Below are positions 14,417-16,233 of a stretch of DNA of 64,000 bases, piece by piece. The position numbers were made by a program, and so were the translations under genes. Numbering within the stretch: the first letter of the stretch is position 1; each line of letters starts with the position of its first letter. The notes beneath the pieces are model-generated. The model was not told the DNA's origin, did not search any database, and saw only the letters and a program-made list of their open reading frames with translations. Source of the DNA: Escherichia coli (lineage in GTDB: Bacteria; Pseudomonadota; Gammaproteobacteria; Enterobacterales; Enterobacteriaceae); NCBI RefSeq assembly GCF_051903065.1, contig NZ_CP178438.1; one strand, given 5' to 3'.

Positions 14417-15124
14417 ATGAATACCCAACTTAAATACGGGAGAACCTGGCATTATCCTTTCTCCCCCGGCACCACCAGCGATGACCGCATTAACGCCGAT
14501 TACTGGCAGGATTTACAGGCCATCACGCAATTGGTGCACACAGAAAAACTCGACGGCGAAAATAACTGCCTTAACCGCTACGGCGTGTTTGCCCGTTCCC
14601 ATGCTGCGCCTACGCAGTCGGCATGGACTTATAAAATTCGCCAGCGTTGGCAACTGCTGAAAAACGATCTCGGCGATCTGGAACTGTTTGGTGAAAATCT
14701 CTACGCCGTTCATTCCATTGAATACCGCGCACTGGAACAGGACTTTTACCTGTTTGCCGTTCGCTGCCAGGATATGTGGCTGAGCTGGGAAGAGGTGCAG
14801 TTTTACGCCGCTCTGTTTGATTTCCCCTTCGTTCCCGAAATCTCCGGTCCGCAGCCGGGGAATGATGAAAAAAGCTGGCAACGTGATTTTCTGGCACTGA
14901 CCAATGCGCGCGGCGCGTTCGATCCCTGGGATACACAAACCGGGCAACCCTGTACGCTGGAAGGCATTGTCAGCCGGAATCGTGATGCGTTTTCCGTCGC
15001 TGACTTTTCGCATAACGTCTTCAAGTATGTGCGCAAAAATCATGTCAAAACCACCGTGCACTGGAAACGACACTGGCAACGGGCGCGGATGGCCCATGAG
15101 TTCGCTTATGGAGAACAGTCATGA
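14417..15124 (+). CDS. Minimal ATP-dependent RNA/polynucleotide ligase (nucleotidyltransferase domain only)
   Basis: 235 aa; covalent nucleotidyltransferase motifs readable in the translation: I TEKLDGEN (KxDGxN), [31 protein letters not shown]. Confidence 0.75.
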
Positions 15125-16233
15125 TTTGGCAGCTTACCGACGATAAACGCTGGTCGACACTACGCCAGCGTTTCAGTTGGGTTGAGGAGATGCATCACAC
15201 GCCACAAGACCCTGAGCATCATGGTGAAGGCGACGTCGGCCTGCATACCGAAATGGTGCTGAACGCCCTCGTTACTCTGCCAGAATTCCAGCAACTCCCC
15301 GCTCAACAGCAGGAAGTTTTATGGGCGGCGGCGTTATTGCATGATGTTGAAAAGCGCAGCACTACCGTGCAGGAAAACGGACGTATTCAGTCGCCGGGCC
15401 ATGCTCGTCGGGGCGAACTGACGGCCCGGCTGATTTTGTGGCGCGATATCCCAACGCCGTTCATGCTGCGCGAGCAAATCGTTGCGCTGGTGCGTCTGCA
15501 TGGGTTACCGCTATGGTTACTGGAACGTCCGGAACCGGAGCGTTTGCTGCTCACGGCTGCAATGCGCATCGACACGGGTCTGCTCGCTTTGCTTGCTCGT
15601 GCCGATCTGCTTGGTCGCCAAAGCCCGGATCGGCAATCAATGCTGGAACGCATCGATCTGTTCGAGCTGTTTTGCCAGGAGCAACAGTGTTGGGGAAAAG
15701 TGCGCTCGTTCGTGTCTGATTCCGCACGCTGGCATTACCTGACCCATGAGCAAAGTTCTCCTGATTTTGTTCCCTGGGAGGCTGAACCTTTTGAGGTCAT
15801 TTTGCTGTGTGGCTTACCGGGTATGGGCAAAGATCGCTATATCAATGAACAGTGCCAGGGAATGGACGTTATCAGCCTTGATGATATGCGGCGGCGAATC
15901 AATGCCAATCCGGACGACAAAACCGCCACCGGGCGTATTGTGCAACAGGCAAAAGAAGAGGCACGCGTTTTTTTACGCCAGAAAAAGCCGTTCATCTGGA
16001 ATGCAACGAACATTACCCGCCAGCTGCGTAGCCAGCTCATCAGCCTGTTTACGGCTTACGGCGCACGAGTAAAAATCGTTTATCTTGAAGTGCCATGGGC
16101 GCAATGGAAGCAGCAAAATGCCAGACGCGAGTATGCAGTTCCTGAAGCGGTCGTGATGCGGATGGCCTCAAGGCTGGAAGTTCCTCAACCTGATGAAGCA
16201 CATAGCGTGGAGTATCGGGTGATTGAAAGGTAA
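15121..16233 (+). CDS. HD-domain phosphoesterase fused to P-loop polynucleotide kinase (HD-Pnk-like end-healing enzyme)
   Basis: 370 aa; N-terminal H...HD motif (GLHTEMV...AALLHDVEK), C-terminal P-loop [13 protein letters not shown]; start overlaps ligase stop (ATGA). Confidence 0.75.

Follow-up and report, generated by a model that had tools for sequence, protein, structure and literature searches.

What does the DNA between emrB and luxS encode in those Escherichia coli strains in which the two genes do not lie side by side? We address this question for a window of 64,000 nucleotides from contig NZ_CP178438.1 (NCBI RefSeq assembly GCF_051903065.1), in which two genes on the + strand occupy the space. 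Gene 1 (14417-15124, 235 amino acids) encodes a predicted minimal ligase, and gene 2 (15121-16233, 370 amino acids) encodes a predicted HD-Pnk, in which an HD domain is joined to a polynucleotide-kinase-type domain. On balance, we think that this pair is the E. coli copy of a conserved ligase/HD-Pnk cassette that heals and then seals broken RNA.

The junction itself is clear. In the window, the last base of emrB is 14159 and luxS, which runs convergently on the - strand, ends at 16282; the gap between them is thus 2122 bp, compared to 63 bp in a K-12-type genome (L002). Between 14160, the base after the emrB stop codon, and about 16272, just short of the luxS stop codon, the two junction types have no sequence in common. 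A preliminary description of this DNA, made from its letters alone, had reported about 2.1 kb of extra sequence relative to K-12 and two genes joined by an ATGA stop/start overlap, and the coordinates agree on both counts. The overlap (15121-15124, + strand) implies that the ligase and HD-Pnk genes are translationally coupled, and the two genes are adjacent or overlapping in 80 of 80 related loci.

By motif and by modelled fold, gene 1 belongs to the RNA-ligase branch of the lysine-nucleotidyltransferases, as a stand-alone protein in which every catalytic motif is present, and it is predicted to have ligase activity. The Pfam RNA_ligase family (PF09414) matches residues 38-205 (E = 8e-28). Motif I (KxDGxN) is K44-L-D46-G47-E-N49, in which Lys44 (codon 14546-14548, + strand) is the adenylylation lysine by motif; motif III is represented by Glu93 (FGEN), motif IV by Glu182-Gly183 (EGIV), and motif V by Lys203 (KYVRK). 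The motifs quoted in the preliminary description all occur verbatim in the translation. Residues K44, D46, G47, E93, E182, G183, and K203 are invariant across 43 ligase sequences whose identity falls as low as 29%, and these sequences also share a near-invariant N-terminal segment, KY(G/P)RTxHxPxSPG...DD.

The AlphaFold model of gene 1 has a predicted local distance difference test score (pLDDT) of 93.7, and Foldseek matches it with a probability of 1.00 to NgrRnl (Naegleria Rnl), Pab1020, T4 Rnl2, MthRnl-type ligases, Trl1-LIG, and T4 Rnl1. The top fold matches are all ATP-dependent RNA ligases, with DNA ligases ranking lower. When the family profile is compared to PDB sequences, the best match is the adenylyltransferase domain of Candida glabrata tRNA ligase (E = 5e-4). 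Matches to mollusc hemocyanin from a single-sequence PDB search were rejected as spurious, being repetitive, low-score stretches, whereas the profile and fold searches gave RNA ligases.

The nucleotidyltransferase fold fills essentially the whole 235-residue chain, with no OB or other accessory domain, which bears out the earlier assignment of gene 1 as an ATP-dependent ligase nucleotidyltransferase without such a domain. Thus, the OB domain and the N- or C-terminal domains that define the Rnl1 to Rnl5 and Trl1 clades are all missing, and identity to any named ligase clade is 14-20%. Because of this low identity, and because 235 amino acids leave no room for an accessory domain, we assign gene 1 on sequence grounds to a separate minimal ligase clade that should not be filed under Rnl1 to Rnl5. 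An exhaustive search returned 1283 representative clusters of gene 1 relatives.

Gene 2 is predicted to combine two activities in one protein, an N-terminal HD phosphohydrolase domain (15121-15750, about residues 1-210) and a C-terminal P-loop domain of the polynucleotide-kinase type (15790-16233, about residues 224-370), both on the + strand, as the preliminary description had proposed. The kinase assignment comes from an AAA_33 match at residues 226-355 (E = 6e-32) and from a match to the bacterial Pnkp kinase region (TIGR04075) at 8e-9. Among characterised proteins, this domain is most closely related to the kinases of C. thermocellum Pnkp, mammalian PNKP, fungal Trl1, and T4 Pnk. Residues K237, D254, and R257 align with a Lys, Asp, and Arg of the C. 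thermocellum Pnkp kinase, which we take to be its catalytic residues. The gene 2 model (pLDDT 91.9) has a Foldseek template modelling (TM) score of 0.74 to 4gp6 and to T4 Pnk. We also observe that the Walker A motif, GLPGMGKD (15811-15834, with the Lys237 codon at 15829-15831, + strand), has Asp238 in place of the usual P-loop Ser/Thr, and that this residue is invariant in 22 of the 22 family members aligned.

The HD domain is recognized most readily at the level of the family. Pfam HD gives a weak match (0.065) to the gene 2 protein alone and a match at E <= 0.001 to 18 of 22 aligned family members. Two NCBIfam models also match, HDIG at 1.5e-3 and the HD region of CCA-adding enzymes at 2e-4; the latter spans residues 13-88 and thus includes the His74-Asp75 dyad (15340-15345, + strand). 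In the family alignment, His42, His74, Asp75, His94, His127, and Asp162 are invariant.

The preliminary description called this system undescribed, which is not the case. We read the E. coli pair, on its domain make-up and similarity, as an uncharacterised member of the bacterial ligase/HD-Pnk family first described in Runella in 2017, and RefSeq already annotates the two genes as 'RNA ligase family protein' and 'ATP-binding protein'. The Runella parallel drawn in that description is accurate: as described by the Shuman laboratory (PMC6097658), the Runella slithyformis HD-Pnk gene, an HD plus P-loop Pnk open reading frame, is preceded by a small putative ATP-dependent ligase open reading frame that overlaps its start. 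The Runella cluster differs in that it adds Tpt1 and a methyltransferase-HIT gene upstream, whereas E. coli has the pair only. Runella HD-Pnk has 5'-kinase and 2',3'-phosphoesterase activities, and the ligase forms ligase-AMP (PMC6097658). The E. coli HD-Pnk is 53-58% identical to members from Cytophagales and other Bacteroidota, and the ligase is up to 63% identical. The Runella pair itself, which is among neither the 80 related loci nor the 120 top hits, was compared by description; Dyadobacter (L075), presumably of the same family as Runella, served as its proxy, and its HD-Pnk is 54% identical to that of E. coli.

The company that the two genes keep across bacteria bears on what they act on. 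When one genome per species was scanned, HD-Pnk relatives turned up in 373 of them, a lower bound because the scan relied on two peptide patterns, and 80 related loci from Enterobacterales and Bacteroidota were kept for the analysis of context. The pairing is obligatory: in all 80 loci, and thus in two phyla, the ligase gene lies immediately upstream of the HD-Pnk gene on the same strand. An RtcB-family gene adjoins the pair in 24 of the 80 loci, and 16 of those 24 also have prfH, located between the RtcB-family gene and the pair, with identities confirmed by NCBIfam. The order rtcB-prfH-ligase-HD-Pnk is found in Serratia, Bacteroides, Mucilaginibacter, and Dysgonomonas, and in Serratia and Bacteroides the pair is joined with rtcB-prfH in one operon. 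The rtcB-linked loci include L011 (5480-9101), L012-L015, L030, L039, L044, L052, L058, L062, L065, L068, L076, and L080. We found no description of the four-gene arrangement in the accessible literature, and the accessible part of a published list of accessory genes around prfH-rtcB does not name the ligase/HD-Pnk pair (PMC6514570).

A putative Tpt1/KptA RNA 2'-phosphotransferase, recognized by eye from its LSxxLRHxPE...GW motif, is present in two of the 80 loci. In L076 (Dysgonomonas) it lies between prfH and the ligase gene (6590-7153, + strand), and in L049, another Bacteroidota genome, it lies near the pair (10833-11384, - strand); both arrangements echo the Runella cluster. Gene fusions tell a similar story, as 25 longer proteins that contain a gene 1-type ligase domain carry a Pnk-type kinase in 12 cases, a 2H phosphoesterase in 7, and a PTP-type phosphatase in 4. 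Such ligase domains occur within proteins of up to 2357 amino acids (among P0285-P0356), and in one of these proteins, P0297, two ligase domains flank a single kinase. Across the 80 loci and the fusions, the recurrent partners all belong to RNA repair or ribosome rescue, and none to DNA repair.

Taken together, the domains and their context suggest a pathway of four steps. Transesterifying RNases would leave breaks with 2',3'-cyclic-phosphate and 5'-OH ends. The HD domain of gene 2 would hydrolyse the cyclic phosphate, or a 3' or 2' phosphate, to give a 3'-OH, and its P-loop domain would phosphorylate the 5'-OH from a nucleoside triphosphate. The ligase would then adenylylate itself on Lys44 and transfer the AMP to the 5'-phosphate, after which attack by the 3'-OH would close the break. 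The substrates would most likely be tRNA or rRNA cut by ribotoxins. Because the ligase has no accessory domain and the two genes are translationally coupled, the ligase probably acts while bound to HD-Pnk or on particular structured RNAs. Of this scheme, the identities of the domains, the conservation of their catalytic residues, the constant pairing of the genes, and the RNA-repair neighbourhood are observed; that the substrate is RNA and not DNA, that the break is sealed, that the two proteins form a complex, and what triggers the system are deduced.

A comparable logic of break repair is found in several other known systems, which use different parts. Phage T4 combines a 5'-kinase and 3'-phosphate removal in Pnkp with the ATP-dependent ligases Rnl1 and Rnl2, but its phosphatase is of the HAD/DxDxT type instead of an HD domain, and its ligases have extra C-terminal domains and are only 14-16% identical to gene 1 in structural alignment. 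The Pnkp/Hen1 and Pnkp1-Rnl-Hen1 systems of C. thermocellum and Capnocytophaga are likewise operon-encoded, multi-protein heal-and-seal systems; they use a calcineurin-type metallophosphoesterase and a 2'-O-methyl mark made by Hen1, neither of which the E. coli pair has. Fungal and plant Trl1 (LIG-KIN-CPD) and the multidomain 'Swiss army knife' proteins bring ligase, kinase, and cyclic-phosphate-processing modules to bear on a single break. The Trl1 ligase domain is the best PDB sequence match of the gene 1 family profile, and the fusions of gene 1 relatives to kinase and 2H or PTP domains follow the 'Swiss army knife' design, whereas in E. coli the modules are split over two proteins and the phosphoesterase is HD instead of 2H. 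Finally, RtcB/RtcA and RtcB2-PrfH of E. coli repair the same type of break, with 2',3'-cyclic-phosphate and 5'-OH ends, but RtcB has an unrelated fold and seals directly with GTP, with no end healing.

How widespread is the pair in E. coli, and is it functional there? Of 5426 complete E. coli genomes, 998 have it in their RefSeq annotation, always as a single chromosomal copy. Strains CFT073 and JJ1887 and the Nissle derivative SYNB1934 carry it at about 95.8% identity to the window, whose own allele is rare (five genomes at >=99%). The carriers thus include relatives of CFT073, JJ1887, and Nissle 1917, all well-studied clinical or probiotic strains. Within Escherichia, the ratio of nonsynonymous to synonymous substitution rates (dN/dS) lies at 0.035-0.07 in the ligase gene and at 0.12-0.17 in the HD-Pnk gene, and these low values show that both genes are real and under purifying selection.

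The preliminary description took the two genes to be an insertion between emrB and luxS, which is doubtful. The pair follows emrRAB in seven genera (Escherichia, Klebsiella spallanzanii, Enterobacter, Superficieibacter, Kosakonia, Phytobacter, and an uncultured relative), and luxS-gshA lies downstream of it in five of the eight emrRAB-linked loci. Between the same strains, the emrB, luxS, and gshA flanks diverge to a similar degree as the pair. Because the site is the same in seven genera and the divergence keeps step with the flanks, loss is a simpler history than insertion, and the pair is probably an old resident that was lost from most E. coli lineages. No integrase, transposase, or other mobile-element gene was found around the cassette, its boundaries have no flanking direct or inverted repeats beyond chance, and its G+C content is that of the flanks.

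Several points weigh against RNA healing and sealing as the function of the pair. Judged from its Runella relative, sealing must be regarded as unproven for the ligase clade of gene 1, because the Runella enzyme adenylylates and yet failed to seal any 3'-OH/5'-PO4 DNA or RNA substrate that was offered to it (PMC6097658). The title of the Runella work speaks of a 'DNA/RNA end-healing enzyme', so that HD-Pnk there acts on DNA ends too, and the title of the work on Deinococcus radiodurans HD-Pnk (Schmier and Shuman, 2018) connects the enzyme to resistance to ionizing radiation and mitomycin C. In E. coli, the CFT073 ligase gene is annotated as a frameshifted pseudogene, with HD-Pnk intact (L083, 1501-2198). 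The pair spans 1807 instead of 1817 bp in CFT073 and in four other listed genomes, SYNB1934 among them, and we infer that these four share the CFT073 lesion, a 10-bp deletion. The rtcB2-prfH genes of E. coli lie megabases away from the pair, and our literature search found no paper on the E. coli genes and no experiment on any enterobacterial ligase/HD-Pnk member.

One reading goes further than RNA healing and sealing in general. The pair might form a second line of response, independent of RtcB, to the damage that ribotoxins do to the translation machinery; it would work beside RtcB2-PrfH, and its conserved 5' leader would switch on expression when translation is impaired. We offer this idea only tentatively. 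In such a scheme, the pair may rescue ends that RtcB cannot join, such as the 2'-phosphate, 3'-OH, or 5'-OH ends left after partial processing. RtcB2-PrfH repairs 16S rRNA and ribosomes cut by colicin E3 (PMC9304027, PMC9223846), and in Serratia and Bacteroides it shares an operon with the pair. In the window, there is no rtcB or prfH gene between emrB and luxS. Sequences of rtcB2-prfH can be traced in 4205 of the 5426 E. coli genomes; in a spread sample of them, about two-thirds of the entries have the full operon, and the remainder are short prfH or rtcB remnants. The pair co-occurs with rtcB2-prfH in at least three genomes, as a full operon in N53 and CNR20180903 and in partial form in 99-3311, and always at a distant locus. 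If this scheme is correct, the pair would contribute to tolerance of colicins and contact-dependent toxins in CFT073-, JJ1887-, and Nissle-type E. coli, and the scheme would provide a natural substrate for HD-Pnk and its orphan ligase.

A function in DNA repair is unlikely. According to this explanation, HD-Pnk would clean the 3'-phosphate/5'-OH ends of DNA breaks caused by oxidation, radiation, or nucleases, and the small ligase would seal the remaining nick. The two titles cited above speak in its favor, and the phenotype reported for the Deinococcus radiodurans enzyme, as its title conveys it, is one of DNA-damage sensitivity. However, RNA ligases outrank DNA ligases among the matches to the ligase model, which lacks an OB domain, and the best PDB sequence-profile match is a fungal tRNA ligase. 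In addition, no DNA-repair gene recurs beside the pair outside single genera in the 80 loci. To our knowledge, E. coli has no 5'-OH DNA kinase, a gap that counts for the DNA explanation. We nonetheless favor RNA healing and sealing over DNA repair because the neighbours are RtcB, PrfH, and putative Tpt1 and the ligase relatives are fused to kinase, 2H, and PTP domains.

We also doubt, to a similar extent, that gene 1 departs from the chemistry of a classic 3'-OH/5'-PO4 sealing enzyme. It could require an unusual end, such as the 2'-phosphate that fungal Trl1 needs and that Tpt1/KptA removes afterwards, or it could adenylylate a different target altogether, in which case HD-Pnk would be the sole true repair activity. 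This possibility would fit the behavior of the Runella ligase and the presence of Tpt1 in its cluster (PMC6097658). It would also fit the putative Tpt1 genes that L076 and L049 have beside the pair, as recognized by eye, the Candida glabrata tRNA ligase domain as the best PDB match of the profile, and the CFT073 ligase pseudogene next to an intact HD-Pnk. Munir and Shuman are said to have found in 2017, however, that Runella HD-Pnk removes 2'-phosphates in addition to 3' and cyclic phosphates, an activity that would destroy the very end needed by a Trl1-type ligase. Moreover, putative Tpt1 occurs in only two of the 80 loci, all ligase motifs are invariant, including those for steps 2 and 3 of ligation, and the ligase is under stronger purifying selection than HD-Pnk.

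The phage world provides the remaining alternative. The same pair in the same order is found in a 462-kb uncultured huge phage (LR756500.1, 24519-26287, - strand) at 36-39% identity. Jumbo phages that infect Caulobacter, Agrobacterium, Sinorhizobium, and Xanthomonas have homologues of the ligase alone, and PHROG families exist for both proteins. These homologues and the patchy distribution within E. coli would fit a mobile conflict module. It is nonetheless quite improbable, in our estimation, that the pair is such a module used mainly in phage-host warfare, whether to undo tRNA cuts by anticodon nucleases, as T4 Pnkp/Rnl1 does, or as a recently acquired defence or counter-defence island, since neither protein matches any PADLOC defence-system family at E <= 0.01 and the seven-genus site, the divergence in parallel with flanking core genes, the backbone-like G+C content, and the lack of integrase, transposase, or flanking repeats all speak against it; phage conflict is better seen as a possible physiological setting for RNA healing and sealing than as a separate mechanism.

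How might the pair be expressed? On the upstream side, a predicted intrinsic terminator at 14167-14188 (+ strand), a hairpin with stem AAAGGGAGC/GCUCCCUUU (-14.8 kcal/mol, z = -2.95) followed by a U run, divides emrB from the cassette. The 228-nt leader that follows (14189-14416, + strand) is conserved in eight aligned loci from seven enterobacterial genera and contains the conserved blocks TTCCATTCAC and AATAATGGATTAT. By eye, conserved blocks in the leader contain a candidate weak sigma-70 promoter on the + strand, with a -35 box TTGTTT (14212-14217), a 17-nt spacer, and a -10 box TATCTT (14235-14240), which a simple consensus promoter scan of the leader did not call; transcription from it would be expected to begin near 14247. 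Further downstream, a hairpin of the form CUGAGC-loop-GCUCAG (14279-14296, + strand, -11.6 kcal/mol, z = -3.5) precedes a U-rich stretch; its stem is invariant, and its loop differs in both sequence and length. The RNAalifold output also contains a possible pairing of an anti-Shine-Dalgarno segment, UCCAUU (14260-14265), with the Shine-Dalgarno sequence AAUGGA (14407-14412), with almost no covariation and a modest fold z-score of -2.1. Neither the cassette and its leader nor the eight related loci have an Rfam match.

Two short leader open reading frames, of 13 codons from GTG at 14232 and of 23 codons from TTG at 14212, were rejected because each is missing from at least one of the nine enterobacterial loci and the frames shift between genera. 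The GTG is better explained as part of the conserved -10 box (TATCTT). On the downstream side, gene 2 and luxS have a predicted bidirectional terminator in common (16239-16263), with folding energies of -20.4 kcal/mol on the + strand (z = -3.3) and -26 on the - strand (z = -5.3); on the + strand, it has an A run before it and a U-rich run after it.

Other lineages have leaders of a different kind. Outside Enterobacteriaceae, where the pair is its own transcription unit, an (A/G/T)TGTAAT motif lies about 85-190 nt 5' of the ligase start in about 15 genera of Morganellaceae and Bacteroidota (L020 at ~7204, L024 at ~7193, L037 at 7211, L053 at 7220, L057 at 7233, L072 at ~7176, L073, L078 at 7234, L081 at 7219, and about 35 more). 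The motif reads as a minimal start-stop open reading frame, AUG-UAA, in which L078 has GUG and L073 has UUG as the start codon; CUG never occurs. In Bacteroidota, a TAnnTTTG promoter box precedes it by about 30 nt, and it should therefore be transcribed. A GC-rich hairpin of variable sequence, with no Rfam match and no consensus fold, comes after the motif. RNAalifold found no consensus structure in 13 Bacteroidota leaders, and only a few leaders yielded terminators in a strict hairpin-plus-U-tract scan. The motif is absent from the window's own leader, and an nhmmer search with the enterobacterial leader recovered enterobacterial loci only, with no connection to the ATGTAAT-type leaders.

Two neighbouring features are ordinary backbone. 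The MicA small RNA (Rfam RF00078, 83.9 bits) is encoded at 16866-16937 (+ strand) and, just as in K-12, separates luxS from gshA. Normal K-12 gene order also holds for the serV-argVYZQ tRNA operon, and we have dropped the tie to it that the preliminary description suggested.

HD-Pnk and its partner ligase have been subjects of biochemistry since 2017. Because many E. coli strains have an intact, selectively maintained copy, the search for their natural substrate can now move to the best genetic system that there is. Elsewhere, the pair's operon link to rtcB-prfH suggests that the first candidate substrates are rRNA and tRNA cut by colicin-type RNases, and the natural ligase frameshift in CFT073, which probably extends to close relatives too, offers a natural comparison. 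Should the function be confirmed, E. coli would possess three separate routes to RNA sealing: RtcB, RtcB2-PrfH, and the ligase/HD-Pnk pair.

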